From: an uncultured bacterium
Lineage (GTDB): Bacteria; Vulcanimicrobiota; JAJTBE01; CAYNGH01
NCBI GenBank assembly: GCA_964396845.1
Contig: CAYNGH010000001.1
Span: 11,936 to 75,935 of the forward strand
Length of the DNA stretch: 64,000 nucleotides
Direction of reading: 5' to 3'
In this document: positions 4,284 through 63,963 of the stretch, one piece after another
Position numbering within the stretch: position 1 is the stretch's first letter
How the letters are laid out: each line of letters opens with the position of its first letter
The notes under the pieces: generated by a model
Told to the model about the DNA's origin: nothing
What the model saw: the letters and a program-made list of their open reading frames with translations, nothing else
The model's database searches: none
Program-made: the position numbers and the translations under genes

Positions 4284-4412
4284 GGTTTCTCCCGCTTATT
4301 GTTATTTAGTTATATTTGCAAATCATTGGAAAACTTGAAGTATATAAAAACCAGTTGAACAAATAGAAGACTTGGCAAGTTTTTCGTTTTATGGCATATC
4401 CGGGAGGAAACC

Positions 4413-7495: not shown

Positions 7496-8176
7496 TTGAT
7501 GAAAAGAATCGTCACAATGATTTGTATTATTATTCTGGCCATGACAGCATTGGCATCAAGGGCAGAAGCTCAGACGGAATCAGGCAAATCCCTGATGGAT
7601 GCCATTGAGGCTATTTCCCAGACCAGGGTTTTTATCGAATTTTATTTTATGGAGGCGGGGGATTATCCCGAAAGCCTGGAGCAACTGGAGGCGGATTTAA
7701 ACTCCCTGCTTCCCCGGAACATGGAAAATGTAAAGATTCCCAAGGATCCGGCCACGGGATCTCCCTTTGTTTATAAAATGGCCCCGGATCGCAAGTCCTA
7801 CAGCCTCAAGGCGCCGGATCCTTCCCGTTACGGGGTCCCCCGACTGGAGTTTGTTCAGGTCCCTTGGGGTGGTTTTGCAGAGATTGCCGAAGAGCGCAAA
7901 CAACGTTTTCTCCAGATGATTTCCATTGAAAACATCAAGGCCATCGCCACAGCCATCGAGTATTACGCCAAGGATCACGCCGGAAATTTCCCGGCAGAGC
8001 TCAAGGATCTGATCCCCAAATACTTGAATACCATGCCCGTTTGTCCTGTTACCGGTGATTTTTATAAATACCAGCAGGACAAGGACAAGAACTACACCAT
8101 CGGCGCGCCGAAGCCATCGGTTTACGGTCTGTCGGAAATGTTCTTCTCATCTCAGCGGGGTTGGGTTACGAAGTGA
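7496..8176 (+). CDS. secreted protein with a tandem internal repeat of a pseudopilin-like (type II secretion GspG-like) module
   Basis: Signal peptide MMKRIVTMICIIILAMTALASRAEA. Two copies of the pattern E[FY]Y..[AD].G[DN][YF]P[EA].L..L...P...P.TG..[FY][VK]YK...Y.[LI].AP.PS.YG occupy residues ~45-120 and ~150-215. Confidence 0.5.
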   Translation: MMKRIVTMICIIILAMTALASRAEAQTESGKSLMDAIEAISQTRVFIEFYFMEAGDYPESLEQLEADLNSLLPRNMENVKIPKDPATGSPFVYKMAPDRKSYSLKAPDPSRYGVPRLEFVQVPWGGFAEIAEERKQRFLQMISIENIKAIATAIEYYAKDHAGNFPAELKDLIPKYLNTMPVCPVTGDFYKYQQDKDKNYTIGAPKPSVYGLSEMFFSSQRGWVTK

Positions 8177-15224: not shown

Positions 15225-17012
15225 TTAACGGTAGAACACTAACTGATACATGTCCCCCAGTTTTTTGAATATGGGAATGAACACCTGACGGATAATCTCA
15301 TCCGGGGTTCTCTCGTCATTTCTCTCCCTTTTGAATTCTTCCGCCATCTGAGCCACCGTCAGTTTTCCCGAGGACAGCTCGTATGTCAGGATCTCCTCGG
15401 GCTGGGAAAGAACTGCATCCACAGTAGTCCGGGGAAGGATCAGGGATGTCCCGTCGGAAGAATACTCCCTGGGTTCATGCACCCGCTGGGCATACCACCG
15501 GGAAAGGCCTTCAAGGGGGATTTCACTGAACATCCGGTAACGGGGAGATTCAAGATAACGAAAGAATGCCGTCAGGGCTTCTCTCTTGCTCAGGAAGTGA
15601 AGATACCAGAGGCTGGACAGTCCATAATGCCAGGCCCATTGGAAATGAATCCCCAGCATGTCGATGGGGATTTTTGGGACAAGGCTCTCCATGACCGACT
15701 CCACCCGCCCGAAGAATCGCCGTTGCAGGTCCCGAATGCCGTTAATGCTGAAGGTTTCCGTGGTCATGTGGACATCAGACAAAGTCAGTCCCTTGACAAA
15801 GCGGTCGTCCACCACATTCAGGCCATATCTGCCGGGATCTTTGGCAATGGCGGTGCCGGGATAAGGCCCCATGTAAAAGGCGTTCACCTCGACGCATCCC
15901 GGCGCAGCGGACAGAAGCTCTTCTGCCAGATCCTCGGTGGCCCGGTATGTTTCCTCGTCCTCAAATGGGCCTCCCAGGATGAAGTTCCCGATGAGGCACA
16001 TTCCCCGGGTTTTCCATACCTGCTCAACAACCCGGCGGGTCATGTCATGGTTTATCTGTTTGCCGTATATGTCCAGGATCTTCTGGTGTCCTGATTCAAG
16101 CCCCACCTGAAGCCGGGCCAGCCCGGCTCCTGCCAGGGCGGGAATCATTTCCGGGTGCCTGTCCATAATGTCAACCCTGCCCTGACAGAAGAAAATAAAG
16201 TCCCGGTTGAAATCTCGGCGGTAATCCACCAGCTCCCGGGCAATCTGCTGGACTCTTTTGGGGTTGGAAATAAAGGTGTCGTCGATTATATCAAAGGCCC
16301 GGTATGGATGGGACTCCAGGTTGGATATGATCTCTTCAGTCACCTTGTGTGGACTCCGGTGACGGTATTTGAGGCCGTGGACTCCCTGAAAGCAGAAAAG
16401 GCAGTTATAGGGACAGCCCCGCCCCGACACCACGTGGAATATCTTCTGAATCCCCGCCAGGGAATGATCCGGAAAGGGGAGGATATCCAGATCCTTTATG
16501 GGTTCTGCCGGGGGGTTTGTGATTATTTTGTCGCCCTTCCGGTATATCAGGCCGGGAATTTGGGAGTAATCCCCCTTTTTGTTTATCCTGCAATCCGCCA
16601 GGCCCATGATGGCTTCTTCCCCTTCTCCCACCACGCAGGCATCAATGGCGGGATCTTCCAGCATGCCGGCTCCCAGACTGGTGGCCAGAGGCCCCCCCAC
16701 CACTGTCAGGATTCCTGGGGCCCAGTGCTTGATTTCCCCTGCCATGTGGCAAACCTGCCGGTGATTGTCGGACACGGTATAAAAGCCGGCAATGGCTGGA
16801 CGATCCATCAGAAAAACCTTTCGAATCTCATGATGTGTCATATGGTAGAGCTGATGAATTCCCAGGCATTTCACCCGGTAACCCCCATCCCGGAGAACTG
16901 TGGCCATGGACAGCAGACCCATGTTGTAATAACTGTATTCAATGTTGAATGCGGAATCCAGGTGGAGAAGAATCACCTGGGGCCGTTGGTTGATTCTGTT
17001 GAATTTATTCAA
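15225..17012 (-). CDS. B12-binding radical SAM protein (595 aa) with ~200-aa C-terminal extension (DUF4070-like)
   Basis: N-terminal cobalamin-binding fold (GGPLATSLG...VVGEGEEA), radical-SAM Cys triad GRGCPYNCLFCFQGVHG, long C-terminal helical region. Confidence 0.85.
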   Translation of the reverse strand: MNKFNRINQRPQVILLHLDSAFNIEYSYYNMGLLSMATVLRDGGYRVKCLGIHQLYHMTHHEIRKVFLMDRPAIAGFYTVSDNHRQVCHMAGEIKHWAPGILTVVGGPLATSLGAGMLEDPAIDACVVGEGEEAIMGLADCRINKKGDYSQIPGLIYRKGDKIITNPPAEPIKDLDILPFPDHSLAGIQKIFHVVSGRGCPYNCLFCFQGVHGLKYRHRSPHKVTEEIISNLESHPYRAFDIIDDTFISNPKRVQQIARELVDYRRDFNRDFIFFCQGRVDIMDRHPEMIPALAGAGLARLQVGLESGHQKILDIYGKQINHDMTRRVVEQVWKTRGMCLIGNFILGGPFEDEETYRATEDLAEELLSAAPGCVEVNAFYMGPYPGTAIAKDPGRYGLNVVDDRFVKGLTLSDVHMTTETFSINGIRDLQRRFFGRVESVMESLVPKIPIDMLGIHFQWAWHYGLSSLWYLHFLSKREALTAFFRYLESPRYRMFSEIPLEGLSRWYAQRVHEPREYSSDGTSLILPRTTVDAVLSQPEEILTYELSSGKLTVAQMAEEFKRERNDERTPDEIIRQVFIPIFKKLGDMYQLVFYR

Positions 17013-17023
17013 AGGATCCCCCT

Positions 17024-18847
17024 TTACATTTTGAAGAAAAGTACCTGATATGTCCTGTCCAGTTTCCGGAGGGCGGGGATGAAATACTTTTTTATCACCG
17101 TATCCCTGTCAAGGTCGGTGCCGGTGCGAAGGATGAACTGATCCACCATCTCCCCGACAGTAATTTTTCCCGATGAAAGCTCGTATATCAGTTTTTCATG
17201 TTCCTTCCTCAGGTGGTATCTGGCCACGGTGGGGGGGAGAATAATCTTACTGCCGTCGGAGGAGTAATAGCGGACTTCCTGAACCCGCATCACAGTGTAG
17301 TCCATCAGGTCATCGGGATGGATTCCATCGAAGATTTCAAAGCGATCGCTGGTGAGATACTTGAAATAGTTGGAAAGATCCCGCCGGGTTGCCAGAAACA
17401 CCGAATGCCACAGGCTTCCCGCACCGTAATTCCAACTCCAGTGATAATGGGTCGCCAGCATTAACCGGGGGATTTTCTTTAAACTTCTCCGCATGTGATC
17501 AGTGACTTCGCCATAGAATTTTATCCGGAGCCTGCGAAGAGTGTTAACATCCAGATGTTCCGTGGTCATGTGGACATCCGATGCGGAAAGCCCCGTGACA
17601 AAAGTCCCTTCGATGGGGGTCAGGCCGTATCTTTCGGGACTTTTCTCGATGGGAGTGCCGGGATATGGACACAGGAACCCTGCGTTTATCTCTACCACTC
17701 CCGGCGCCAGGGATATGAGCTCCTTGGCCAGATCTATGCTTGCCTGAACGGTTTCTTCGCTTTCGCCGGGCCCCCCCAGGATGATATTCCCCACCAGGGT
17801 CATTCCTCCGGTGTCCGCCACTAATTTTGTCACTTTCTTTATCTGATCGATGGTAATCTTCTTCCTGTAAGCCTTGAGCATGTCCGGATCCCCCGATTCG
17901 ATGCCTATTTGCAGCCGGGCAAGACCCGCCTCGTTGAGGGCGGGGATCATCTCCGGATGCCGGGAAATCTGATCCACCCGGCCCTGGCAGAAGAAAAGAA
18001 AGTCCCGGCCCGATTCCTCCCGATATTTTTTCAGCCTCTTGGCAAATTCCATGACCCGGCGGTGATCCGACACGAAGGTGTCATCGATTATGTCAAAGTA
18101 ACGGCTGTTGTATTTCTCGATGTTGTGGACTATCTCATCCATCAGGTTATCAACGCTTCTGAGGCGGAACTTGAGGCCGTGGACTCCCTGAAAACAAAAG
18201 ATGCAGTTGTGGGGACATCCCCGGCCCGACACCAGGTGAAAGAAATCTTGAGCCCCTGCCAGATCGTAATCGGGGAAGGGCAAACTGTCCAGATCCCCGA
18301 TGGGTGGAGCCGGGGGATTCTGTCGGACTCTGCCTCCCTCCCGCCATATCAGGCCGGGAATATCACTCAGGGCGCCGGTGGATTCTTTTTTCCAGCGCAT
18401 CAGGGCCAGCATGGCTTCCTCCCCTTCTCCCACCACCGCCATGTCAAAATCCCCGCAGTCCATTATCTCCGTTCCCAGACTGGTGGCCAGGGGGCCTCCC
18501 ACGATGATTATGGTCCCGGGACTCCACCGGCGGACCTGCCGGGCCAGACGGCTTACCTGTTCAATGTTATCGGAGATGGTATAAAACCCGGCAAAGACTG
18601 GTTTTGACAGGCTGAATGTTCTTCGCATATCTCCGGTGGATATCTCAAAAAGCTGATAACCCCCAAGACACCGAACATTATAGCCTTCCCGATCCAGGAG
18701 GGTCGCCATGTAAAGAAGCCCCATATTAAAATATTGATTCTTTAGGTTGTAAAAAGTGGTGGGGTTCATAAAAACCACGTCCAGAGGCGGGTTTGATTTT
18801 TTCAAGCTCTTTACCCGGTCGCCGATTTTCATCAATTCCTCCAACAT
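17024..18847 (-). CDS. B12-binding radical SAM protein (607 aa), paralog of the adjacent gene
   Basis: Same architecture and shared blocks (GGPLATSLG, VVGEGEEAM, GRGCPHNCIFCFQGVHGLKFR, FFCQGRVD). By eye it is ~45-50% identical to 15225..17012. Confidence 0.85.
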   Translation of the reverse strand: MLEELMKIGDRVKSLKKSNPPLDVVFMNPTTFYNLKNQYFNMGLLYMATLLDREGYNVRCLGGYQLFEISTGDMRRTFSLSKPVFAGFYTISDNIEQVSRLARQVRRWSPGTIIIVGGPLATSLGTEIMDCGDFDMAVVGEGEEAMLALMRWKKESTGALSDIPGLIWREGGRVRQNPPAPPIGDLDSLPFPDYDLAGAQDFFHLVSGRGCPHNCIFCFQGVHGLKFRLRSVDNLMDEIVHNIEKYNSRYFDIIDDTFVSDHRRVMEFAKRLKKYREESGRDFLFFCQGRVDQISRHPEMIPALNEAGLARLQIGIESGDPDMLKAYRKKITIDQIKKVTKLVADTGGMTLVGNIILGGPGESEETVQASIDLAKELISLAPGVVEINAGFLCPYPGTPIEKSPERYGLTPIEGTFVTGLSASDVHMTTEHLDVNTLRRLRIKFYGEVTDHMRRSLKKIPRLMLATHYHWSWNYGAGSLWHSVFLATRRDLSNYFKYLTSDRFEIFDGIHPDDLMDYTVMRVQEVRYYSSDGSKIILPPTVARYHLRKEHEKLIYELSSGKITVGEMVDQFILRTGTDLDRDTVIKKYFIPALRKLDRTYQVLFFKM

Positions 18848-34908: not shown

Positions 34909-35322
34909 ATGGCAAAACTTCTGATGCATCGTAAACCCAAGGTTCTTGTTGTAGATGGGGACAGGGATTTTCTGGAGCTTTTTGACTCTCTTTTTTACCG
35001 CTGGTTTCTTCTTACCCCGGTTGACTGTTATATTGTGGCCCTGGAGAAACTTCAAAGAGGGGTTTTTGATGTGGCGGTGGCGGATCTGGCAAGCCACAGC
35101 ACCCCTCCGGGGCAGGAGTTCCTGCAGGGAACCCGGGATCACCGGGAGGGGATTCCTGTTTTGTTTACCGCCAACATCACCAGCACCAGCCGGGTAAACC
35201 TGTGCCGGAGGGCCGGCGGGATTCGGCTTCTGGAGAAGAATTTTTCCTGCCGGGAAAAGGTGATAAAGACTGCCGGTTATATTATGGATGCGTCCCTGGA
35301 GAATCCTGCTGACGAGTCCTGA
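34909..35322 (+). CDS. single-domain response-regulator receiver (CheY-like) protein
   Basis: KVLVVDGDRDFLELF...FDVAVADL...GIPVLFTA is receiver-domain-like. The 3' end overlaps the convergent 35282..38614 gene by ~40 nt. Confidence 0.55.
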   Translation: MAKLLMHRKPKVLVVDGDRDFLELFDSLFYRWFLLTPVDCYIVALEKLQRGVFDVAVADLASHSTPPGQEFLQGTRDHREGIPVLFTANITSTSRVNLCRRAGGIRLLEKNFSCREKVIKTAGYIMDASLENPADES

Positions 35323-38300
35323 CTGCGCCGATTCTCGCATCCACATTATCGGAATCCTTTGTCAGAACATACTCATATACCGACATTGCTTCGTGGGGTT
35401 TGTCCAGTTTTTCCAGTATATTGCCCATTTTCAGAGGGATTCTCAGGTCTTCCGGGTTAATTCGGATGGCCTGACCATAGGCTTTTACCGCATCGTCGAG
35501 AAGATTCTTCTTCTGGTATAAATCTCCCATGTAAGATTGGGCAATAAAGTTGTCGGGCTGGGCTTCGAGGATCCGGCGGAAAACTTCGCCGGCCTTATCC
35601 AGTTGGCCGGTTTCCATGTATATCCGCCCCAGATAAAGGTGATATGGAATCACCTGGGGGCCCTGGGCCAGCAGTTCCATGGCATGGGGCAGGGCAGTTT
35701 CATACTGTTCATCCATCAAGAGCAGGATCACCAGCTGGTGAAGCAGTGCCCGGTTGCCGGGAAAGGTTTTCATGGCATTCCGGCAGTAGTCAATCCCCGC
35801 GGTTACAGCACCGGTGGATTTGTAGATATTTATAGCTTCAAGATAAGGCACCAGGCTTTCGGGAGATGCCCTGTTTGCATCCTTGAGTATTGACAGGGCT
35901 CTCAGACGGTTTTCATTGTGCAGTTCCATCCGGGCATACTTGATATATGTCTGGGGATCCTCCGGGTTGAGGCGAATGGAATGGCGGAAGGCTTTGCGGG
36001 CCTGATCCCAGAGTTCAAGCCGGGTATGCACCGAGGCCATGTCCCGGAAAAGCTCTCCATCGGTTTTTATTTCAGGATTCAGGTTGGTTACCCAGTCCAG
36101 TTGAGAAACTTCATCGGCATAGCGGGCCACTTCTCGAATTACCAACATTCTGTCAATGTCGCCATAAATATTTTTAGGAGCGTCAAACTCCAGAAGAGGC
36201 CGGTCATCGCTGTTTATACGGCCATCGCCGGCGAAGGCCCGAACTCTTTTTGCGCTGGTGATGTAGTTGCCCAGAAGTTTCCGGGGATTTTCGCAGTCGA
36301 TAAGCTCAAGGTATCTTTGAATGTTTTGATTCCTCTCCACCACTGATAAAAGTCTTTCATAATCAAGACGGATGGGTTGCCGGGATCCAATCAGCATCAG
36401 ATCTCCCCTCTGGGTAATCCACAAGTCGCCATGTGGGAAAACCGAATAAAAGGTGTTCATCACCATCTTCACCGTGGCGGGATCCATGCCGTAGGTGTGG
36501 ATCCACTGGCAGTAGATGCCGTCCTCCTTGAGTTTATCCAGACAAACCTTGTAAAAGTCGATGGAAAACAGATTTCCTATCCCGGCAATCCATGGGTTTG
36601 AGGGTTCGGATATTATAATGTCATATTTTTCCCCCGCTGCCAGAATAAAATTCCGCCCGTCGGCAATATGGCTGTGAAACCGGGGATCCTCAGTCACGCC
36701 TAAGTTTCCTTCATGGAAATACCTGGCCGCTTCCATAACCACCGGCTCAATTTCGATGCTGTCGATCCTCTCCACTTCGTCAAACTGGCTTACCGCAGCA
36801 TCGGTGATGCCACTGCCGAAACCGATGATGCATACTCTCCGGGGATTGGGATGAAGAACTGCAGGGATGAAGCCCTGAAGCCACTGGGTGTGAAGATCGC
36901 CGGTTCCTTCAGGGCTGAAGGATGCATCGGTCTTTCCGTTGACTTTCAGGGATACCATATCCCCGGATTTAACAATGGTAACGGTGCTGGAAATGCCATC
37001 CCGGTAAAAAACGATGTTCTTTGCTTCTCTATCCAGCAATCGGTTGAACTGCCGGATACTGCTCACCTGATCGTAAAACTGCGCATAAACAGAAACCCCC
37101 AGGGACATGGCGGATTTTCGCCAGACCTGGGAAAACATCAGAACCATTGCCAGCACTCCGATGAGGGCAAAGCGGAAGTATCCGGAGATTTTCTCGCTCT
37201 GTTCTTTTTTAAACAGATAAATATAAATCAGCAAAGCTCCCAGCATATTTATTCCCGTGGCAAGTTTCAGGGAGTTTTCCACCCCGATGATGGGGATCAG
37301 CAGAAATCCCGCCATAAAAGAACCGGTGATGTTGCCTGCGGTGTTGGATGCATAAACCACGCCGATTTTTGCACCTAAATTTTTCAAATTCCGGGTATAT
37401 ATCTTCACCACCAGGGGAAAGGTCAGCCCGAACATTATGGTGGGAGGTAGCATCACCAGGAAACTGATAATGAAATTCCCCGCCACCACGAGAAAATACG
37501 AACCTTTTAGAATCGGAAACAACCGCAGGAATAAATATGGAAGAAATCCCAGGGCTGGCAGGATCAGCAGGCTCATGATTCCGATGGTCAGCTCCACATT
37601 GGCCAGGGATTTGATGGTGATTTTCTCCTGGTTGAACAGACGGGTGTTGGAAAAAATATAACTCCCCAGGGCAATGCCGAATAAAAATGTGACAAGAATG
37701 GTGGAAAAAGAATAAACCGATGAACCGATGGAAAGGGCCAGGGCACGGCTCCATCCCACTTCGTAAACCATGGAGGTGAACCCGGACATGAAGAAAACCA
37801 GCAGAATCAAGCGGTGTTTGTTTTTCTCGTCAATATTGGATTCTATCTCCGGTTCACTGGCCGGCTCCGGATCCAGGGGGGATTCTTCAACACTGTCAAC
37901 ATTGCTGTCAGGTTCTTCGCCTCCCGCCATCATGCGGTCCGCCATTATAGTAACAAGACCGATAACCACATTAATCAAGCCTGCCGTCACCAGGGTGACC
38001 TGCAGTCCCAGGGCGGGAAACAGGATGAATCCTGCCAGAAAAGAACCGATGACTGCGCCGAAGGTGTTGATGGAATAAAGCCGGGCGGTTTTTGCCATAA
38101 GCTCGCCATAAGTCCTGATTACAAACTTGAGCACAATGGGCAGGGTGGCTCCCATGGCCATGGTGGGCAGAATAAAAATCATCACCGAGAGAATAAAAGT
38201 GATGATACTCATAGGGTAAAGAGAAAGGGAAAAGGCTCCCATGAGGCGGGTATAAATCATCCCCACCACATCAATAAGAAAAGGAGTGAAAAAGGCATAA

Positions 38301-38614
38301 ATGCCGATGCCCAGAGAGAGTAAACCGTAAAGACGCATATGGGGCGAGAAGGACCCGGCAGTCAGGGCCAGCAGGATCCCCGGCTTTTTGTCATCGGTCA
38401 GGTCCAGTTGGTCTGCTGTCTTGCCGGCAAGGTAGCTTCCCAGGGCAAGCCCCCCCATGAATGCTGCCAGAATACTGCTGATGGCAAAAACAGTATGGCC
38501 GAATATGATGGAAAGCCTCCGGCTCCATAAAATCTGGTATATCAGACCTGTCATCCCGGAAAGAAGAAAGAATACATGAAGCAGGGACAACAGAAACCGT
38601 CTTTTTCCCGACAT
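35282..38614 (-). CDS. 1110-aa fusion: MFS-like polytopic membrane domain + spermidine-synthase-like domain + C-terminal TPR repeats
   Basis: >12 TM helices at the N-terminus. SpeE-like core VCIIGFGSGITDAAVSQFDEVERIDSIEIEPVVMEAARYF...IISEPSNPWIAGIGNLFSIDFY. C-terminal TPR helices. It is a paralog of 8166..10442. Confidence 0.7.
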   Translation of the reverse strand: MSGKRRFLLSLLHVFFLLSGMTGLIYQILWSRRLSIIFGHTVFAISSILAAFMGGLALGSYLAGKTADQLDLTDDKKPGILLALTAGSFSPHMRLYGLLSLGIGIYAFFTPFLIDVVGMIYTRLMGAFSLSLYPMSIITFILSVMIFILPTMAMGATLPIVLKFVIRTYGELMAKTARLYSINTFGAVIGSFLAGFILFPALGLQVTLVTAGLINVVIGLVTIMADRMMAGGEEPDSNVDSVEESPLDPEPASEPEIESNIDEKNKHRLILLVFFMSGFTSMVYEVGWSRALALSIGSSVYSFSTILVTFLFGIALGSYIFSNTRLFNQEKITIKSLANVELTIGIMSLLILPALGFLPYLFLRLFPILKGSYFLVVAGNFIISFLVMLPPTIMFGLTFPLVVKIYTRNLKNLGAKIGVVYASNTAGNITGSFMAGFLLIPIIGVENSLKLATGINMLGALLIYIYLFKKEQSEKISGYFRFALIGVLAMVLMFSQVWRKSAMSLGVSVYAQFYDQVSSIRQFNRLLDREAKNIVFYRDGISSTVTIVKSGDMVSLKVNGKTDASFSPEGTGDLHTQWLQGFIPAVLHPNPRRVCIIGFGSGITDAAVSQFDEVERIDSIEIEPVVMEAARYFHEGNLGVTEDPRFHSHIADGRNFILAAGEKYDIIISEPSNPWIAGIGNLFSIDFYKVCLDKLKEDGIYCQWIHTYGMDPATVKMVMNTFYSVFPHGDLWITQRGDLMLIGSRQPIRLDYERLLSVVERNQNIQRYLELIDCENPRKLLGNYITSAKRVRAFAGDGRINSDDRPLLEFDAPKNIYGDIDRMLVIREVARYADEVSQLDWVTNLNPEIKTDGELFRDMASVHTRLELWDQARKAFRHSIRLNPEDPQTYIKYARMELHNENRLRALSILKDANRASPESLVPYLEAINIYKSTGAVTAGIDYCRNAMKTFPGNRALLHQLVILLLMDEQYETALPHAMELLAQGPQVIPYHLYLGRIYMETGQLDKAGEVFRRILEAQPDNFIAQSYMGDLYQKKNLLDDAVKAYGQAIRINPEDLRIPLKMGNILEKLDKPHEAMSVYEYVLTKDSDNVDARIGAVRTRQQDSPGTHP

Positions 38615-51151: not shown

Positions 51152-52552
51152 ATGAAAATTCTCCTTGTTGCCCCGAATCACCGGCGGATTCTGTCGCCGG
51201 GATATATGAAGACCATTCAGGAATGTATTGGTCATCTGCCTCCCCTGGGGCTTCTTTCCATTGCAGGATACCTGCTGGAGAATACCTCCCACCGGGTAAG
51301 AGTGGTTGACGCCCTTACCGGGGATCTGACTCCCCATCAGGTGGGAGAGATAGTCAAAGAGGAAAAGCCCGATGTGGTGGGGATTCACGCCATCACCCTG
51401 GCCCTGCTGGATGTGCTGGATATGGTGGATGCCGTCAGGACGGCGGATCCATCGGCAGGGGTTCTTCTGGGAGGCCCCCATGTATCGGTGTTTCCTGGTG
51501 AGTCTGTGGGTTATGCCGGTGTGGATTTTGCTGTTGCCGGTGAAGGTGAAGAGCCGGTGGCAAGACTTCTGGACATGCTGGAGTCCGGCGGTGATCCCGG
51601 TGAGATTGACGGGGTGATGACTCCCTCCACCGGCCCAAAAACCCCTTTCATCCATAAGGATCTGGACTCTCTGCCTCCTCCTGCCAGGCATCTGACTTCC
51701 TTTGAAAAATATCATACCGTGGTGAGCAGTCATCCTCCTTCCACCACCATCATGAGCAGTCGGGGCTGTCCTTTTTGTTGCACATTCTGTCATACCGCCG
51801 GTGGCAAGGTTTTTCGCCCCCGTTCTCCGGAGAAAGTCGTGAAGGAGGTAAATCAATGCCTGGATATGGGGATCCGGGAATTTTTCTTTTTTGATGAAAC
51901 CTTCACCGTCCACCGGGATCGGGTGATTGACATATGCCGGCGGTTGATTGACGGCGGACGGGAAGTGATATGGGATGCCCGGTGCCGGGTTGATCTGGTT
52001 GATGAAGAGCTTTTGGGATGGATGGTCAGGGCCGGGTGCCGTCGGATTCAATACGGGGTGGAATCGGGCAGTGCAAAGGTGTTGGATCGCCTGGGGAAAG
52101 GATTTGATCCTGATACCGCCGAGAACGCCATTATGGCAACCCGGAAGGCTGGCATCGCAGCTTATGCTGATTTTATGATTGGCAATCCTGGTGAAACTCT
52201 GGAGGATATGGAGGAAACCTTTCTATTTGCCCGAAGAACAAGACCTGATTATGTCCATTTTTCCATAACCATGCCTCTTCCCGGCACTCCCCTTTATCAG
52301 GAGGCTATGGATATGGGGATTATCTCCGGGGACTCCTGGAGGGGATTCGCCCGGAATCCGTCCCCTGACTTCCGGGTTCCTTACTGGGAGGAGAACTTCA
52401 CCGGGGAGGAGCTGGAAAAACTCCTGGGCCGGGCATACCGTGAGTTTTATTTTAGTCCCGGCTATCTGATCTCGGCCCTGGGGGGGCTTACTTCTCCGGG
52501 AGAGGCTCTCCGCAAGGCCCGGGCAGGATTCCGCCTGCTGACAGGGCTATAG
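51152..52552 (+). CDS. B12-binding radical SAM protein (466 aa)
   Basis: N-terminal cobalamin-binding fold (MKILLVAPN...LPPLGLLSIAGYL...AVAGEGEEP). Radical-SAM Cys triad SSRGCPFCCTFCH. Confidence 0.85.
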   Translation: MKILLVAPNHRRILSPGYMKTIQECIGHLPPLGLLSIAGYLLENTSHRVRVVDALTGDLTPHQVGEIVKEEKPDVVGIHAITLALLDVLDMVDAVRTADPSAGVLLGGPHVSVFPGESVGYAGVDFAVAGEGEEPVARLLDMLESGGDPGEIDGVMTPSTGPKTPFIHKDLDSLPPPARHLTSFEKYHTVVSSHPPSTTIMSSRGCPFCCTFCHTAGGKVFRPRSPEKVVKEVNQCLDMGIREFFFFDETFTVHRDRVIDICRRLIDGGREVIWDARCRVDLVDEELLGWMVRAGCRRIQYGVESGSAKVLDRLGKGFDPDTAENAIMATRKAGIAAYADFMIGNPGETLEDMEETFLFARRTRPDYVHFSITMPLPGTPLYQEAMDMGIISGDSWRGFARNPSPDFRVPYWEENFTGEELEKLLGRAYREFYFSPGYLISALGGLTSPGEALRKARAGFRLLTGL

Positions 52553-54563: not shown

Positions 54564-55334
54564 TCAGCTGGCCCGGCCTGCCATGACCTGGTTGCTCCGG
54601 GTTATTTTTGCCCTCAGTTTTCGCAGGGCGGTGGTATGGATCTGGCTGATTCTGGCCTCGGAGATATGCATGATGCACTTGATTTCCTTGAGGGTGAGAT
54701 CCTCAAGATAATAAAGTGACAGCACCAGTTTTTCCTTGTGAGTCAACTCCGAGAGGGCTTTTCTGAGCTGTTCCTTTATCTCTATTCGTTCAAACTCGTT
54801 GTGTTCCCGGAAGCGGTTGAGGTGGTTCTGTCTTTCCCCCGAGTAAAAGTAGCGGTTGGAAAAGGTCTGAAGGTCTTCAAAGGACAACATGTGGGATTGC
54901 TCCACCGCGTTGATTATCTGGCTCAGCTTGTTTCTGGGAAGCTCCATATGGGTGGAAATCTCCTCGGGGGAGGGTTCTCTTTTCAATGCCTGTTGCAGTT
55001 CTTCTCTGGCCCGATCGATCTTTTTAGACATCTTGCGAATCCGCCGGGGAACCCAGTCCATGGATCGCAGGGAATCCAGAATCGATCCCTTGATCCTGAT
55101 GGAAGCATATGTTGAGAACTTCATGCCGTATTTTTCATCAAACTTGACCGCAGCATCCATAAGCCCCATGATTCCATCATGAACCAGATCATCGGTGTCG
55201 ATGTGGCGGGGCAGGAATATAGCCATCTTGCTGGCTATCATTTTAACCAGGTGAAGGTTCTGGCGGATGAGTTCTTTTTTGTTCTCATCCAGCCTTTCTG
55301 TGGTTTTTCTCATAACTGCTCCCATTCTTATCAC
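54564..55334 (-). CDS. fliA: flagellar sigma factor (sigma-28, FliA/WhiG family)
   Basis: Sigma-70 region 2 LVHDGIMGLMDAAVKFD...FSTYASIRIKGSILDSLR and region 4 LSLYYLEDLTLKEIKCIMHISEARISQIHTTALRKLR. It lies at the 3' end of the flhA operon. Confidence 0.8.
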   Translation of the reverse strand: MIRMGAVMRKTTERLDENKKELIRQNLHLVKMIASKMAIFLPRHIDTDDLVHDGIMGLMDAAVKFDEKYGMKFSTYASIRIKGSILDSLRSMDWVPRRIRKMSKKIDRAREELQQALKREPSPEEISTHMELPRNKLSQIINAVEQSHMLSFEDLQTFSNRYFYSGERQNHLNRFREHNEFERIEIKEQLRKALSELTHKEKLVLSLYYLEDLTLKEIKCIMHISEARISQIHTTALRKLRAKITRSNQVMAGRAS

Positions 55335-55385
55335 CCATTACTGTATTTACAAACATTCATGAAAACACTTAAAAAAATTGAAGAA

Positions 55386-57527
55386 CTATACCTTTGTATT
55401 AGACATTCCTCCAGGGACTGTTCTTTCGGCGGTATCAGACAGCTTCATGATGTCAATGGTTTCAATGGAGGCTTCCCGGAGGATTTCATTGTATGAAAGA
55501 ACCACAAGTTCCGGGGCTACTTTCTCCGAGAGCTTCTTGACATATATCCGAATAGTCTGGGAGCACAGGATGATGGGTTGGTGTCCCAGGAGGGTGACCT
55601 TTCGGATGGAATCCAGCAGGGCTTCATAGAACCGTTTCAGGTTGTAGGGATCGATGGCTGCCAGGGGCTGATTTCTATCCTGGGCCACGGCTTCCCGGAT
55701 CAGGTTCTCGATTTCCATCCCCAGGGTTATTACAGGAATGGTGCCGTCTTCCAGCTGGTATTTTCGACAGATGGTCCGGGCCAGGGCAACTCGAACCTGT
55801 TCGGTGAGATAATAAATGTCTTTGGTGCGGGTAGCAAAATCTGCCAGCACTTCCAGGATCTGGCGCATGTTTTTCACTGGGATTCCCTCGGACAGGAGGT
55901 TCTGGAGTATCTTCTGGATATCCCCCACCGACAGCAATGACGGAGTAAGCTCCTTGATGAGGGTGGGATATTTTTCTCCCACTCTGGAAACAAGATCCTG
56001 GGTTTCCTGCCGTCCCAACAGCAGGGGGGCCCGAGATTTGATGATCTCCGAAAGATGAGTGGCAACAATCGAGGATCCGTCAATAACAGTATAGCCCAGG
56101 ATTTCCGCCTCGTCCCGATCCTCTTCCCGGATCCACAGGGCTGGAAGTCCGAACACCGGTTCCCGGGTGTCGATGCCTTCCAGATCCTCATCAAGGAGAT
56201 CCTCGGAGGCTTCTCCTCCCATGGCCAAAAGACGCCCGCTCATCATTTCATACTGGGCCATGGTTTCGCCGAATATTTTAATCCGGTACTGCCGGGGATT
56301 AAGCTGTATATTGTCCCTGATCCGCACCGGGGGCACTACTATGCCAAGTTCCTGGGCACAGGTCTTGCGCACCATCAGAACCCGATTCAACAGATCCCCT
56401 CCCTGTTTTTCATCCACCAGGGATACAAGACTATAGCCGATTTCCACTTCCAGGGGCTCCAGGTCCAGCACGGGTATGGCAATTTCCGGCTCCCTTCCCG
56501 TCTGCCGGGCTTTTTCTTCCTGCACCTGGGCTTGCTGTTGCCGGGCTTCTTCTACTTTTTCCTTTTCTGCTTCCGCGGATATTTTTCGAGAAAGAACAAA
56601 AACCCCGATGGAGAGGACTATGAAAGGCATCCTGGGGAGTCCCGGCACCAGGGCAAAGGCTGCCAGAAGACCTGCCAGGATCTGCAGTATCCGGGGTTGC
56701 TGAAGGATCTGCTCAGTGACATCAACCCCCAGGTTTGATTCTGAAGCAGCCCTGGTGACTATGATTCCCATGCCTGTGGAAATCAAAAGTGCCGGGATCT
56801 GGGTGATAAGCCCCTCGCCCACCGTCAGCAGAGTGAACCGTTTCATGGCTTCCACAATGGTCATCCCCTGCTGGGTGCTTCCCACCACTATGCCCCCCAG
56901 AATATTAATGATGATGATGACCACCGAGGCGATGGCATCCCCCTTGATGAATTTTCCCGCTCCGTCCATGGCTCCATAGAAATCCGCTTCCCGTTCAATC
57001 TTGTGCCGTCGTGCTCTGGCGTCTTCCTGAGAGATCATTCCCGATGACAGGTCAGCGTCGATGGACATCTGTTTGCCGGGCATAGCGTCCAGAGTGAACC
57101 GGGCTGCCACTTCTGCAACCCGCTGGGCACCGCTGGTGATAACCACAAATTGAACAACCACCAGTATCAGAAATATCACCAGACCAACGACATAATTTCC
57201 CCCCACCACGAAATCGCCGAATGCGCCGATGAGCTGGCCGGCAAAACCTGTCAGGAGAATCAGCCGGGTACCGCCGATATTGAGAGATAACCGCAGGAGA
57301 GTGACCACCAGCAGAAGCGACGGGAAGACAGAGAAGTTCAGAGGCTCCAGGGTGTACATGGCCACCAGCATGATCATGAGGCTCAAGGTGATGTTGAAGG
57401 CATGGAGGAAATCCAGCAGGAAGGGAGGCAGAGGCAAAACCATAAACACAATCATGGCCACCATCCCCAGCACCAGCAGGATGTCGGCATTTTTGAACAT
57501 TTCCTTTTTTGATTTGGACATGCTCAT
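55386..57527 (-). CDS. flhA: flagellar type III export apparatus protein FlhA
   Basis: FKNADILLVLGMVAMIVFMVLPLP...GGNYVVGLVIFLILVVVQFVVITSG... plus the C-terminal cytoplasmic domain; 713 aa. Confidence 0.9.
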   Translation of the reverse strand: MSMSKSKKEMFKNADILLVLGMVAMIVFMVLPLPPFLLDFLHAFNITLSLMIMLVAMYTLEPLNFSVFPSLLLVVTLLRLSLNIGGTRLILLTGFAGQLIGAFGDFVVGGNYVVGLVIFLILVVVQFVVITSGAQRVAEVAARFTLDAMPGKQMSIDADLSSGMISQEDARARRHKIEREADFYGAMDGAGKFIKGDAIASVVIIIINILGGIVVGSTQQGMTIVEAMKRFTLLTVGEGLITQIPALLISTGMGIIVTRAASESNLGVDVTEQILQQPRILQILAGLLAAFALVPGLPRMPFIVLSIGVFVLSRKISAEAEKEKVEEARQQQAQVQEEKARQTGREPEIAIPVLDLEPLEVEIGYSLVSLVDEKQGGDLLNRVLMVRKTCAQELGIVVPPVRIRDNIQLNPRQYRIKIFGETMAQYEMMSGRLLAMGGEASEDLLDEDLEGIDTREPVFGLPALWIREEDRDEAEILGYTVIDGSSIVATHLSEIIKSRAPLLLGRQETQDLVSRVGEKYPTLIKELTPSLLSVGDIQKILQNLLSEGIPVKNMRQILEVLADFATRTKDIYYLTEQVRVALARTICRKYQLEDGTIPVITLGMEIENLIREAVAQDRNQPLAAIDPYNLKRFYEALLDSIRKVTLLGHQPIILCSQTIRIYVKKLSEKVAPELVVLSYNEILREASIETIDIMKLSDTAERTVPGGMSNTKV

Positions 57528-57844
57528 TGACCTTCTCCTTCCACATCAAGACCCATCTCAAGTCGTTCCACAAAGGCGATAACTTCTGCCACTGCCTGGT
57601 ACATGTCGGGAGGAATCTCCTCTCCTAACTTCACTCCGTGGTAAAGGGCCCGGGCCAGGGGCTTGTTTTCAAAGAGTTGCACTTCATGTTCCTGGGCAAT
57701 TTTTTTGATCTGCATGGCCAGATGATCCTGTCCCCTGGCCACCACCACCGGGGCGTTGTCTTTCACCTCGTCGAACCGCAGGGCTACGGCAAAGTGGGTG
57801 GGGTTGGTCACCACCACCTTTGAGGTTTTCACATCATTGAGCAT
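57524..57844 (-). CDS. flhB: FlhB C-terminal (cytoplasmic, NPTH autocleavage) portion, downstream of an in-frame TAA
   Basis: MLNDVKTSKVVVTNPTHFAVALRFDEV... It is in the same frame as 57920..58615, separated by TAA (57920..57922) plus 25 sense codons that still read like FlhB (HKSIEGDPFVKSRIRSKQKQLARAR). Confidence 0.8.
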   Translation of the reverse strand: MLNDVKTSKVVVTNPTHFAVALRFDEVKDNAPVVVARGQDHLAMQIKKIAQEHEVQLFENKPLARALYHGVKLGEEIPPDMYQAVAEVIAFVERLEMGLDVEGEGQ

Positions 57845-57919
57845 CCTCGCCCGGGCCAGTTGTTTCTGTTTGCTTCGAATCCTGCTCTTGACAAAGGGAT
57901 CTCCTTCGATGGATTTGTG

Positions 57920-58615
57920 TTATTCTTTTACTTCCTGGTGGGTCATCATCATTTGCTTCCGGAACATAAAATACTGCAGGAAATAATCCAGAATCCCCGT
58001 GACAAAAATTAAGATCATCATATGGTAAAACAGGCTCATGGCTGTTCTGCCATAAAGACTGGTGATGTCATGGGCTTTCATTCGGGGGACTCCCTGGATA
58101 GCCGGCAGATTCTTTGAGAGGAAGTTTTGAAATACAATAATAATCAGCAAGGTTCTGAGAATCACCTTGAATGTTTCCAGAAGGCTTTTCTGGGAGAAGA
58201 GTTTTTTTGCTCCCTCCACAGGGTTAATTTTTTCCAGTTTTGGTTTTATCGCTTCCCCTGAAGCCAGAAGACCTGTCTGGAAGACATGGCCGGCGACTCC
58301 CACCACAGAAACCACTCCGAATACCTGTATCAGGATTATCATGGGCTTCTGCCAAGCGTTGAGAATATCTCCCATGTAGTTTGCCACGGTTATGTCCCTG
58401 GCCCCCAGTCCCATGAGCCGGCCTTTGAGCCATTCCAGCATGGTTGTCATCATCCCTGATCCGGCAATGGAAAAGAGTATGAAAACCCCGACAAAAACCA
58501 CGGCCCCTGCCAGGTCGTTGGACTTGGCCACCTGTCCTTTTTTTCTGGCTTCCATCAATCGATGGGGAGTCGGTTGTTCGGTTTTCTCGTCGGCCAAGGA
58601 ATCACCGCCTTTCAA
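57920..58615 (-). CDS. flhB: FlhB N-terminal (membrane) portion, ending at an in-frame TAA
   Basis: MKGGDSLADEKTEQPTPHRLMEARKKGQVAKS... with 4 TM helices. It ends ...MMMTHQEVKE-TAA, where canonical FlhB continues ...EVKDEHK... Confidence 0.8.
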   Translation of the reverse strand: MKGGDSLADEKTEQPTPHRLMEARKKGQVAKSNDLAGAVVFVGVFILFSIAGSGMMTTMLEWLKGRLMGLGARDITVANYMGDILNAWQKPMIILIQVFGVVSVVGVAGHVFQTGLLASGEAIKPKLEKINPVEGAKKLFSQKSLLETFKVILRTLLIIIVFQNFLSKNLPAIQGVPRMKAHDITSLYGRTAMSLFYHMMILIFVTGILDYFLQYFMFRKQMMMTHQEVKE

Positions 58616-58636
58616 GGCCCTGCCGGAGAGATGGGA

Positions 58637-59410
58637 TTAGATGTAGAAGGCCCGGATGATTTGCTGTTGCAACTGGCTAAAATACCTGGAAAAGCCCATC
58701 ATGATATTTCCAAAGGTTGCCATCAGGATAAACAGGCCCAGGAATATCTTGAAGGGAAAGCTGATGAGGAGTATGTTCAGCTTGGGGGCAGTCCGAGCGA
58801 TGAACCCCGCGGTCACATCCACCAGTATGACACCGATTAGCACCGGGGCTGCGGTGACAAAGGCAACTCTGATGATGTCAGAAAAACTGCGAATCATCAG
58901 GGTGACATATCCCGGCCCTACCCGGAAGCTGTCCAGAGGCAGTGCCCGGAAACTGTTGATAAGACCCAGCACAAGCCAGTGATGGCCGTCAAGGCCCAGG
59001 AAGATCATAGTGGCAATCATGTAAAACCATCGGGCATTGACAGTGGACATGACCCCGGAATGAGGATCCACCAGGCTGGACATGGAAAACCCGATTTGCA
59101 AGTCTATCAGAGATCCACCGGACTGGATGGCTTCAAAGACTATGCTCACCGCCATTCCCAGAAGCAGGCCGATGACCGCCTGTCCTGCTACAAGGATGAT
59201 AAAATCCCCCATGGTTGCGGGGATGGCAGATATCTTGTCCAGAGGAGGAAACAACAGCAGGGTTAAAACCAGAACTATGAGAGCCTTGAACATGGCAGGA
59301 AGTGTTCTGGCGCCGATTATCGGCGAGGCCACAAAAAAACCCGATATCCTGGAGAACACCAGGATAAACGAAACGATTGTAGCCGGTCTGAACAGCTGGC
59401 TCAAGTACAA
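58637..59410 (-). CDS. fliR: flagellar export apparatus protein FliR
   Basis: 257-aa polytopic protein directly between fliQ and flhB, with FliR-like hydrophobicity and conserved Gly/Pro spacing. Confidence 0.75.
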   Translation of the reverse strand: MYLSQLFRPATIVSFILVFSRISGFFVASPIIGARTLPAMFKALIVLVLTLLLFPPLDKISAIPATMGDFIILVAGQAVIGLLLGMAVSIVFEAIQSGGSLIDLQIGFSMSSLVDPHSGVMSTVNARWFYMIATMIFLGLDGHHWLVLGLINSFRALPLDSFRVGPGYVTLMIRSFSDIIRVAFVTAAPVLIGVILVDVTAGFIARTAPKLNILLISFPFKIFLGLFILMATFGNIMMGFSRYFSQLQQQIIRAFYI

Positions 59411-59680
59411 TCACCTCAGGTAGCGGGTGAGATCCCCCAGATGATGGGTGGCAAAGTCCAGGACCTTGCGAAGCATCCAGGGAGAGAAAAACATCAGGGC
59501 TGCCCCCGATGCAATGATTTTCATGACAAAACTGACGGACTGCTCCTGGATCTGGGTGATGGCCTGAACAATGCTGATAAAAAGGCCCACCACCATACCC
59601 ACCACCACCACAGGGCCTGCCAGATACAGGGCCAGAGTAAGCATTTCAGACCCGATTTGGGTCGCCTGTCCAGTGGTCAT
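59411..59680 (-). CDS. fliQ: flagellar export apparatus protein FliQ
   Basis: 89 aa; ...LTLALYLAGPVVVVGMVVGLFISIVQAITQIQEQSVSFVMKIIA... is typical FliQ. Confidence 0.85.
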   Translation of the reverse strand: MTTGQATQIGSEMLTLALYLAGPVVVVGMVVGLFISIVQAITQIQEQSVSFVMKIIASGAALMFFSPWMLRKVLDFATHHLGDLTRYLR

Positions 59681-59730: not shown

Positions 59731-59758
59731 AAAAAAAAGGCCCCCCAAAGGGGAGCCC
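59731..59758 (-). terminator. intrinsic terminator between the fliD-fliS-orf operon and fliQ
   Basis: The minus-strand transcript reads GGGCUCCCC UUU GGGGGGCC followed by U8. Confidence 0.55.
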
Positions 59759-59832
59759 TGCAAGAAGTAATATGTGCCTTTCACCGTCTTTCGCCGATGA
59801 AATCTTAAGTCACATCGGTTGTCACCTGTATG

Positions 59833-60219
59833 TTACTTTCTTACATCAATGAATCTGGATGCAGATAAGGTGTTGTTGTTATAAGAGTTTTTTTCTCCCT
59901 TCCCTGCTCTGCGGGCCTGTGCCATATCTCTGAAGGCCTGTTCCTTCTGAGTGTGAATGGTTTGCCGGACTGTTTCTTCCATCTTTCGGATTTTTACCAG
60001 CTGGCTGTCAAATTCTTTTCTTTCCCGGCTTCCTTCTGGGGGCAGTCTGTGCCGGGGCAGTTCCTTCAATAGAGCTTCCCGCCGGGCAAGAAGTTCGCTG
60101 ATGGCTCCGGTGGCGCCGTTTTTGAGGCATTCAAGTATCCCTTCGGTCATGCCGGCATATTCCCGGCACCATGCAAGGCATGTGTTATCCTGCATTTTAG
60201 TTGAGGTATCGCTGTTCAA
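59833..60219 (-). CDS. hypothetical helical protein in the flagellar cluster (possible FliT/FlgN-like chaperone)
   Basis: 128 aa, immediately downstream of fliS. A chaperone assignment rests on synteny only. Confidence 0.3.
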   Translation of the reverse strand: MNSDTSTKMQDNTCLAWCREYAGMTEGILECLKNGATGAISELLARREALLKELPRHRLPPEGSRERKEFDSQLVKIRKMEETVRQTIHTQKEQAFRDMAQARRAGKGEKNSYNNNTLSASRFIDVRK

Positions 60220-62136: not shown

Positions 62137-63963
62137 TTAGCCGAACAACCTCATGATGGACTGAGGCGCCTGGTTTGCCTGAGCCAGCATGGCCATACCC
62201 GTGGACTGGAGGATCTGGGCCTTGGAGAAGTCCAGCATCTCCTGGGCCATATCCGCATCCCGGATGACCGATTCTGAAGCTGCCATGTTCTGGGCAGCAA
62301 CCCGGAGGTTCCTCACTGAGGACTCAAGAATGTCCTTCTGGAATGAACCCATCGAGGACCGCATGGAGTTGACCTCGTCCATGGCGGCATCGATGATCCT
62401 CAGGGCATCCTGGGCTCCTTCGAAGCTGGTCACATCGATGGACGCAACATCGATGGAACTCATGGAGGTTACTCCTGTGGCAGTGGCTCCCAGTTGGCCT
62501 GCTCTCATATCGCCCAGGGCCACCTTCACCGTCTGGTTGGAGAAAGCACCCACCTGGAACTGAAGGGCGTTCTGCTCCACGGAGATTTTGCCTTCGTCGG
62601 TGGCTCCGCCGTCTATGCGGACCTTGATGCCTTCTGCATCGGTGCCTGCCGCGCCGACCAGGTAAACCCCGCCGACACTGGTGGCGGTGTATCCGCCGAT
62701 GTCACCGGTGACATTGGCGCCTTCCACGCCGTTGGTGCCTCCGCCGTCGGCGATGAACTGGTCCGCTCCCTTGACTCCCAGGGCAATTCCGGTGCCTGAT
62801 GCACTGTTGCCGTCAATCACACTGGAGGAGATGGAGTATTTGATGACGTCGGATGCGCCGTATTCCAGGTTCTCCACCACGAACTGTTCTGCAGTGTCAT
62901 TGTAGCTGACCTTCACATTGAACTCCGCATCAGAAAGAGCGCTGTTGATCCGGGCCACAGCATCACCAATGGAGTCCCCCTGCTTCAGGGCAACATTGAC
63001 ATGAGATCCCTGGCCGTTCTTGATGATGATGGTTTCATTCTGACCAAGGAGAGTGGTGCTGTCGGTTGATGATGCCATATCCCTTGTTAACGTGCCACCG
63101 GCAAAATCATCAGTACCGGTTATCAGCAGAGCGTCATCGTGATCGGCTCCCAGAACATTGAGGCCATCGATTACAATATCTCCACCTACTGACAGATCAA
63201 CAGTTGCAGTAACTTCAGTGAAGCCTGCTTCAGTAAAAGCAGTTTCGATGGCTAATTTCACCGCAGCATCATCATCACCTGCTTCAACATTCACCTCAAT
63301 GGTCTGACCATATACTGCTGTGCCAGAAATAGTAAGAGTTGAGTCGGCTTGAATCAGCTCACTAGCATCACCGCTTATGCCGTATGTAGCACCGTCGATG
63401 GCAGTTCTGGCTTCGCTCCTGTGTTCGCCCTTCACCGATGCCGTCAGGTTGTTCACATCATAGGTGCCCCCTACAGTGTTGACAGAACCTTCGATGAAGG
63501 AGATGCTCTGCTGATCAGAGGTACCCGTTACACCGGAAGAACCGTTGAGAAGACGGCGGGTGCCGAAAGCAGTGGTGTTGGCAATCCGGTTGAGGGTTTC
63601 AATCGAAGCATCTATCTGTTCTTGATCCGCCAGGATTGCTGCTTCGTCGGATGCACCGGTGTTGGATGCATGCAGGGCCAGATTCCTCATAGTACGAAGA
63701 ACAGTGGTTACCTCGTCCAGGGCCGCTTCTGCGGTCTGCACAAGAGAAACACCGTCGTTGGCGTTGCGGATGGCCTGGTTGAGGCCTTCAACCTGACTGC
63801 GGAACTGTTCTGAAATAACCAGACCTGCAGGGTCGTCCGCAGCCCGGTTGATGCGGAGTCCCGATGAGAGCCGTTCCACGGACTTGGTGAAGTTGCCTTC
63901 GTTGAGCTTGAGATAACGGTGCGCATTCATCGCGCTGAGGTTTTTGTACACTACCATTGACAT
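62137..63963 (-). CDS. fliC: flagellin (608 aa, large hypervariable central domain)
   Basis: Conserved N-terminus ...NLSAMNAHRYLKLNEGNFTKSVERLSSGLRINRAADDPAGL... Conserved C-terminus ...SVRNLRVAAQNMAASESVIRDADMAQEM...LAQANQAPQSIMRLFG. RBS AAGGAGG. Confidence 0.9.
   Translation of the reverse strand: MSMVVYKNLSAMNAHRYLKLNEGNFTKSVERLSSGLRINRAADDPAGLVISEQFRSQVEGLNQAIRNANDGVSLVQTAEAALDEVTTVLRTMRNLALHASNTGASDEAAILADQEQIDASIETLNRIANTTAFGTRRLLNGSSGVTGTSDQQSISFIEGSVNTVGGTYDVNNLTASVKGEHRSEARTAIDGATYGISGDASELIQADSTLTISGTAVYGQTIEVNVEAGDDDAAVKLAIETAFTEAGFTEVTATVDLSVGGDIVIDGLNVLGADHDDALLITGTDDFAGGTLTRDMASSTDSTTLLGQNETIIIKNGQGSHVNVALKQGDSIGDAVARINSALSDAEFNVKVSYNDTAEQFVVENLEYGASDVIKYSISSSVIDGNSASGTGIALGVKGADQFIADGGGTNGVEGANVTGDIGGYTATSVGGVYLVGAAGTDAEGIKVRIDGGATDEGKISVEQNALQFQVGAFSNQTVKVALGDMRAGQLGATATGVTSMSSIDVASIDVTSFEGAQDALRIIDAAMDEVNSMRSSMGSFQKDILESSVRNLRVAAQNMAASESVIRDADMAQEMLDFSKAQILQSTGMAMLAQANQAPQSIMRLFG

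Follow-up and report, generated by a model that had tools for sequence, protein, structure and literature searches.

An in-frame TAA codon at the conserved linker glutamate of flhB in an uncultured bacterium

The stretch of DNA analysed here (64,000 nucleotides of contig CAYNGH010000001.1, assembly GCA_964396845.1; hereafter the window) carries a cluster of flagellar genes on its minus strand. One of these, flhB, encodes the export-gate protein FlhB, and its reading frame is interrupted by a TAA codon. The locus raises the question of whether this stop is real and, if it is, whether the organism still makes a working FlhB. An earlier note on this DNA had set three explanations side by side: a sequencing or assembly error, a genuine nonsense mutation, and a functionally split gene whose C-terminal domain is re-initiated at the Met at 57844. 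The second is the best supported of the three, with a reproducible stop at the position of a conserved Glu and one substitution away from GAA. We consider it probable that the TAA is a recent, real and population-wide ochre mutation, which would remove the cytoplasmic switch domain of FlhB and abolish or cripple flagellar export.

The flhB reading frame and its stop codon

The flhB gene is a single minus-strand reading frame that runs from 58597 to 57524 and is broken by one in-frame TAA at 57922..57920. The minus-strand codons at the site are ACC CAC CAG GAA GTA AAA GAA TAA CAC AAA TCC ATC GAA GGA GAT CCC, which translate as THQEVKE*HKSIEGDP. The distance from the TAA to the Asn of the NPTH autocleavage motif is 39 codons, in agreement with the earlier description of a single in-frame TAA about 40 codons before NPTH. 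The open reading frame (ORF) as listed mechanically spans 57920..58615, with a TTG start and 231 aa. A likelier start is the TTG at 58597 (M-ADEKTEQPTP), which gives a product of 225 aa, the same length as in the gene calls of the European Nucleotide Archive (ENA). Thus, unlike the FlhB norm, this flhB is not one uninterrupted ORF of ~350-390 aa. Translation from the flhB start stops after 225 residues and yields the membrane domain that docks to FliPQR, without the cytoplasmic domain.

Both sides of the stop belong to the same protein. Positions 1-217 of the PF01312 (Bac_export_2) profile match the part before the stop (E=5.8e-54) and positions 219-335 the part after it (E=5e-54), so that the TAA fills exactly one family position. 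The TIGR00328 profile, the NCBIfam equivalog model for FlhB, is matched at 1-223 before the stop and at 226-345 after it. As encoded, the two pieces score 171.0 and 182.1 bits, each below the cut-off of 349.25, whereas the 357-aa conceptual protein obtained by restoring Glu at the stop matches positions 1-345 of 348 unbroken, with 372.5 bits. The domain order, a four-helix membrane domain followed by a C-terminal cytoplasmic domain, is colinear with the FlhB profile, and the gene lies among the export-gate genes fliQ-fliR-flhB-flhA as expected for FlhB. This colinearity with PF01312 and TIGR00328, far beyond chance, upholds the proposal that the two flanks and the 25 intervening codons form one FlhB frame.

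The residue replaced by the stop is among the most conserved of the family. When the 119 top-ranking homologues, retrieved from 5.8 billion proteins, were aligned, 118 had Glu in the stop column and one had Asp. Alignment to the solved Salmonella FlhB (chain 36hu_K1), with the register checked at N269/P270, places the stop at E230. A single G-to-T transversion would turn GAA, the presumed ancestral codon, into TAA at this invariant linker Glu. Set against its relatives, a comparison that the earlier note had suggested, the stop is a singleton. All 119 other top matches are full length (at least 349 aa) and none is split, and the closest relative, a Vulcanimicrobiota metagenome-assembled genome (MAG; GCA_964607865.1), has an uninterrupted FlhB of 387 aa that is 53% identical and is encoded in the same order, fliQ-fliR-flhB-flhA. 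A protein scan of the GTDB species genomes for relatives confirmed none. The TAA is carried only by near-identical copies of the same genome. In Salmonella FlhB the E230A substitution lowers export activity and is suppressed by E11S in the FlhB N-terminal tail (PMC8041783; PMC7064499, citing Inoue et al. 2019).

Independent public assemblies offer a way to check an in-frame stop seen in a MAG. Here the TAA is found in five assemblies, namely an NCBI contig of 93,777 bp, from which the window presumably derives, and four separately assembled ENA contigs. The latter are megahit contigs (ERZ27252294, 515 bp; ERZ27252305, 1591 bp; ERZ27252299, 1256 bp; ERZ27252302, 794 bp) that are 99.9-100% identical to the window, span the site and read GAA TAA CAC. 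Every assembly in which this population is sampled has TAA as its consensus. The exact 225-aa product and the exact 106-aa or 102-aa products of the two pieces are present in a public protein collection, from the NCBI contig and the ENA contigs, and the exact 106-aa protein was found on an ENA contig. Exact look-ups of uninterrupted FlhB carrying E, Q, K or Y at this site gave no match in this collection of ~15 billion proteins. Scans for the exact DNA pattern, with N at the mutated base, gave zero matches in GTDB genomes or JGI metagenomes and recovered no sense-codon allele.

A sequencing or assembly artefact, in which the true base would be G (GAA), is therefore very unlikely. The same base is seen in four separate megahit runs on different ENA analyses as well as in the NCBI contig, the site lies outside any homopolymer, and ERZ27252305 and ERZ27252299 each have one private single-nucleotide polymorphism (SNP) elsewhere, at window positions 58234 and 58696, so that they are not copies of one consensus. 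Nothing positive was found in support of an artefact beyond a probable common origin of the contigs, as the neighbouring accession numbers of the four ENA analyses suggest a single study. For the same reason, the TAA is to be seen as a real allele in one community and not as a widespread one.

Both private differences are non-synonymous, sit in low-coverage ENA contigs and may be errors or rare variants. Position 965 of ERZ27252305 has a G to C change in flhB (KLEKINP to KLQKINP), and position 94 of ERZ27252299 a G to T change in fliR (Gly to Cys).

Table 1. Coordinates of the parts of flhB and of neighbouring flagellar genes in the window.
Feature	Position	Strand	Remarks
flhB N-terminal segment	57923..58597	-	225 codons: FlhB transmembrane domain and ~19 linker residues; ends MMMTHQEVKE
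Ochre codon TAA	57920..57922	-	Replaces invariant Glu (Salmonella FlhB E230); next base C (TAA-C)
FlhB_CN linker helix	57845..57919	-	25 in-frame codons (HKSIEGDPFVKSRIRSKQKQLARAR); untranslated unless the stop is read through
ATG ORF	57524..57844	-	106 aa and TGA; globular FlhB C-domain core including the NPTH autocleavage site
Alternative GTG start	57830..57832	-	102-aa product, N-terminus (M)KTSKVVVTNPTH; gene call on the NCBI contig and on ERZ27252302
NPTH autocleavage motif	57794..57805	-	AAC CCC ACC CAC, intact; N and P in 119/119 homologues
flhA	55386..57527	-	713 aa, intact; TIGR01398 821 bits (cut-off 772); strong SD GGAAGGAGAAGG
fliR	58637..59410	-	Intact; above equivalog cut-off; ends in a normal TAA
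fliQ	59411..59680	-	Intact; directly upstream of fliR
fliA	54564..55334	-	Intact
Flagellin	62137..63963	-	608 aa, large central insert; intact
SD, Shine-Dalgarno sequence.

Decoding of the stop and separate expression of the C-terminal domain

If the stop is real, FlhB could still be made in full if the TAA were decoded as an amino acid. The 43 long non-overlapping ORFs of the window use TGA (22 ORFs), TAA (15) and TAG (6) as terminators. TAA terminates 14 of the 42 ORFs other than flhB, including fliR at the normal end of the fliR family profile, and DnaG, RpoD, FlhA and FliR are all complete. The organism uses the standard genetic code, with TAA as a stop; reassignment of the codon is ruled out by these 14 ORFs and four full-length proteins. 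Selenocysteine and pyrrolysine are rejected because the codon is TAA, as had been remarked earlier for selenocysteine. Frameshifting or hopping is ruled out by the downstream part being in the same frame and by the lack of a slippery sequence, and phase variation by the lack of a repeat tract at the site. There is no sign of programmed readthrough or recoding at the site: the stop is not conserved among the homologues, a tRNA scan found zero genes, and hence no suppressor tRNA, within the 64-kb window, and RNA folding of the sequence downstream of the stop showed no stimulatory structure, with a minimum free energy (MFE) z-score of +0.5, no better than shuffled sequences.

Leaky readthrough is a fourth explanation, absent from the earlier note. 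A near-cognate tRNA (Gln, Lys, Tyr or Glu), or a suppressor tRNA whose gene lies elsewhere in the genome, might read UAA-C and thereby yield a little full-length FlhB; such an allele would not be null but hypomorphic or expression-tuning. The sequence after the stop keeps the frame and is undamaged, even in the 25 codons that can be translated only by readthrough, which speaks for this route. The identity of this 25-residue spacer to the relatives is slightly lower than that among the relatives themselves (0.49 vs 0.62), and thus gives no hint of extra constraint. In favour of leakage, a C at +4 makes a comparatively weak termination context for UAA in E. coli; against it, UAA is recognised by RF1 as well as RF2 and is as a rule the tightest of the stop codons. 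The absence of a downstream structure and of a tRNA gene in the window also argues against leakage, as does the absence of the stop from all relatives. The export gate contains one FlhB (PMC7911332, PMC7064499), and a very low level of full-length protein might therefore support some assembly; yet any residue other than Glu would land where E230A already cuts export (PMC8041783). Leaky readthrough is thus improbable.

The other way to a working FlhB would be the functional split. The membrane part (225 aa) and a free C-domain (102-106 aa) would be separate translation products that associate non-covalently, like FlhX with FlhB in Helicobacter. The C-domain would come from re-initiation or 70S scanning from the TAA to ATG 57844 or GTG 57832, 75 and 87 nt downstream; the 25-codon spacer has zero ATG, GTG or TTG. 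Both starts are in frame and yield the whole globular core with an intact NPTH motif, in a C-domain without decay. Minamino and Macnab (2000) reportedly restored motility by co-producing FlhB-deltaCC and FlhB_CC, which counts for a two-piece protein. Crystallised FlhB/SctU constructs start close to Met252 of the present protein (6z0w_A at query residue 247 and 3t7y_A at 255), and by analogy a re-initiated C-domain product would fold.

The signals for such initiation are poor. An SD-like GCGAGG directly abuts ATG 57844, and the same GCGAGG lies 12 nt upstream of GTG 57832; neither start has a properly spaced SD sequence. The anti-SD duplex energy is ~-6.5 kcal/mol for both, which 12-14% of all ATG/GTG triplets of the window equal, compared with -9.4 kcal/mol for the SD sequence of flhA (GGAAGGAGAAGG). 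The earlier statement that no strong SD precedes ATG 57844 is thus correct. A promoter scan found no promoter-like site on the minus strand upstream of the C-terminal ORF.

The protein itself also argues against an established split. Made separately, the two pieces would together lack 26 residues, including the most invariant linker positions of the family (E230, K, EGDP and KxRIR), while current models transmit force via the covalent connection between transmembrane (TM) helix 4 and the linker (PMC7064499). The untranslated spacer retains its invariant residues, so the arrangement is not old, and 0 of the 119 top homologues are split. The natural autocleavage of FlhB, which had been put forward as a model, resembles the present case in that FlhB/SctU natively consists of two non-covalently associated polypeptides and in that NPTH is intact here. 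It is not a fitting model, however: the natural cut is post-translational and falls between Asn and Pro (Salmonella N269/P270), whereas the break here lies 39 codons upstream, at E230 at the start of the linker, and would remove the CN helix instead of cutting it. Gene architecture of flhB does vary in nature, as in the clostridial fused FliR-FlhB (NF009411), and many of the top matches are ~610-aa fusions. That arrangement is a fusion and not a fission, and it is conserved across a clade, whereas the stop here is a singleton.

The closest parallel to a free C-domain is FlhX (H. pylori HP1575)/TIGR00789, an NPTH-containing C-domain core of ~85-120 aa, an extent shared by the 106-aa ORF. FlhX can act in trans with truncated FlhB, and in H. 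pylori this stand-alone FlhB_C homologue (FlhX/HP1575) takes over part of the role of FlhB_CC (bioRxiv 10.1101/2021.08.29.457346, citing Pallen 2005, Wand 2006 and Smith 2009). FlhX differs in being a separate paralogue beside a complete flhB, whereas here the 3' part of the orthologous flhB is severed by a stop and has no convincing ribosome-binding site (RBS). In addition, the FlhB that FlhX complements keeps its CN linker. The 106-aa ORF matches TIGR00328 at positions 250-345 with 145.5 bits and TIGR00789 with 75.5 bits, below the cut-off of 117.35; judged by these scores, its product is a fragment of FlhB and not a stand-alone, FlhX-like family member. A second flhB or flhX copy was not found by tblastn within the window. 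On all these features, the 106-aa ORF appears distinct from the trans-acting FlhB C-domain proteins.

Re-initiation at Met 57844, as proposed in the earlier note, is thus conceivable, but it gains no positive support from a good RBS or a split relative, and it would lose the invariant linker segment. We regard a functional two-piece FlhB as distinctly unlikely. Considering both routes, it is unlikely that the TAA allele is tolerated because FlhB still works, either as a natural two-piece protein without the invariant E230-EGDP-KxRIR linker or through rare readthrough of UAA. If the allele were functional, it would be a natural experiment on the need for covalent joining of the membrane and cytoplasmic domains of FlhB, and would bear on a question raised by models of export-gate opening, namely whether FlhB needs the invariant E230/EGDP linker. 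The two-piece case would show that FlhB can dispense with the covalent TM-to-C tether and with the linker helix, to which transmission of the gate-opening force is ascribed.

Age and predicted consequences of the mutation

The sequence downstream of the stop shows how far decay has gone. The C-domain after the Met has a mean identity of 61% to the twelve nearest homologues and the N-domain 41%; the C/N identity ratio is 1.49 here and 1.48 among the relatives themselves, so that the C-domain has kept the surplus of conservation that is normal for the family. The 25-codon spacer retains every near-invariant residue: K228, E231, G232, D233, P234, K237, R239, I240, R241, Q244, A248 and R251. Its lower identity was rejected as a sign of decay, as it concerns 25 residues only and amounts to ~three positions, all within the variation observed in the family. 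These comparisons leave two readings, a recent mutation or a region that is still being translated.

We favor a recent nonsense mutation. As in a recent nonsense pseudogene, the stop stands at a conserved sense codon, is reproducible in independent data and is one substitution away. The cytoplasmic domain that would be lost is expected, from what is known of the family, to bind early substrates, to autocleave at NPTH and to switch export specificity. An early-substrate docking site has been located on FlhB_C (PMC8983047), and NPTH autocleavage by FlhB_C is required for the specificity switch (PMC7911332). The FlhB linker is important for secretion (PMC3708937), and the linker and FlhB_C are needed for both secretion and switching (PMC3708937, PMC7064499, PMC7911332); in current models, gate opening is driven through helix 4 and the linker (PMC7064499). 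The predicted outcome is that flagellar type III export is lost or severely reduced, with few or no flagella. The TGA of flhB and the ATG of flhA overlap (ATGA) at 57524..57527 on the minus strand, which implies translational coupling, so that a stop 396 nt upstream could be polar on flhA and fliA. Premature termination may thus lower the expression of both genes by polarity, although flhA keeps its own strong SD. Any residual activity would depend on occasional readthrough or on re-initiation at ATG 57844 or GTG 57832. The explanations therefore overlap, as a nonsense allele that is still young may leak a little in one way or the other.

Several points weigh against loss of function. The other eight genes of the cluster (fliC, fliD, fliS, the fliT-like ORF, fliQ, fliR, flhA and fliA) have no lesion, and the flhB sequence after the stop has not decayed. 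On a nonsense mutation, both would still be intact because the lesion is young, but this pattern is equally expected if the gene works as a two-piece arrangement or via readthrough. At least four read sets have the allele as their consensus, and it is not obviously being purged. Finally, the basal body contains FliP5Q4R1FlhB1 and hence one FlhB only, so that even a rare full-length product might suffice (PMC7911332).

The earlier note had considered a nonsense mutation surprising in an otherwise intact cluster. This is less so than it seemed, since a young pseudogene amid an intact cluster is what a first step of motility loss looks like, and since there is a precedent in Salmonella Gallinarum and Pullorum, which are non-motile and in which flhB is a pseudogene in all strains surveyed (PMC11078800). 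There, too, flhB is inactivated by a small lesion that has reached fixation in a lineage or population, with most of the flagellar regulon still recognisable (PMC11078800). In these Salmonella, flgK and other flagellar genes are also broken, and the organism is a well-studied host-restricted pathogen; here flhB is the sole lesion seen in the 64-kb window, in an uncultured deep-branching bacterium. The present case belongs with this known inactivation of flhB, by nonsense or frameshift mutation, in an otherwise recognisable flagellar regulon and is of an ordinary kind. It is chiefly of use as an inexpensive candidate for probing whether FlhB can tolerate losing the TM-to-C tether, and as a warning for the prediction of traits in this lineage: an inference from gene content would score flagellar motility as present, yet the population is most likely unable to build flagella.

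The flagellar cluster and other genes of the window

The minus-strand order of the cluster is flagellin, fliD, fliS, a FliT-like ORF, a terminator-like hairpin, fliQ, fliR, flhB, flhA and fliA. In the fliQ-fliR-flhB-flhA(-fliA) unit (54564..59680), fliP and fliO are not found upstream of fliQ, nor flhF and flhG after flhA. The corresponding unit of the closest relative, GCA_964607865.1 (5864..10262), likewise begins at fliQ, and the absence of fliP upstream of fliQ is therefore an architecture of the lineage and not decay; fliP must lie elsewhere in both genomes.

A 128-aa ORF between fliS and fliQ (59833..60219, minus strand) has a weak match to FliT (PF05400, E=1.5e-5, 26.1 bits, below the cut-off of 29.5) and no NCBIfam match, and is possibly a divergent FliT-like chaperone. 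The gap between this ORF and fliQ holds a hairpin resembling an intrinsic terminator (59759..59737, minus strand), with a stem of 10 pairs (7 G-C) and a T7 tract after it. Its position suggests that fliC-fliD-fliS-fliT is transcribed separately from fliQ-fliR-flhB-flhA-fliA. The 608-aa flagellin was also considered as a flagellinolysin and rejected: it has no HExxH, and its match to NF033876 (E=1.2e-10) covers only residues 416-538, at the C-terminal end of the profile.

A housekeeping block, yvcK(CofD-like)-dgt-dnaG-rpoD, occupies positions 131..6641 of the plus strand. RpoD is long (742 aa), its nearest public relative is only 70% identical, and its named matches are from Eremiobacteraeota or Vulcanimicrobiota. 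The lineage appears poorly sampled, with no close relative found for comparison (the nearest RpoD being 70% and the nearest FlhB 53% identical), and is probably related to Vulcanimicrobiota/Eremiobacterota.

Elsewhere in the window, three ORFs encode B12-binding radical SAM proteins (15225..18847, minus strand, and 51152..52552, plus strand), all below equivalog cut-offs; two of them are adjacent and adjoin a 997-aa delta-60-repeat protein (11366..14359). Two very large spermidine-synthase-like fusion proteins are encoded on the minus strand, one of 758 aa at 8166..10442 and one of 1110 aa at 35282..38614, the latter with an MFS-like membrane region and C-terminal TPR repeats.

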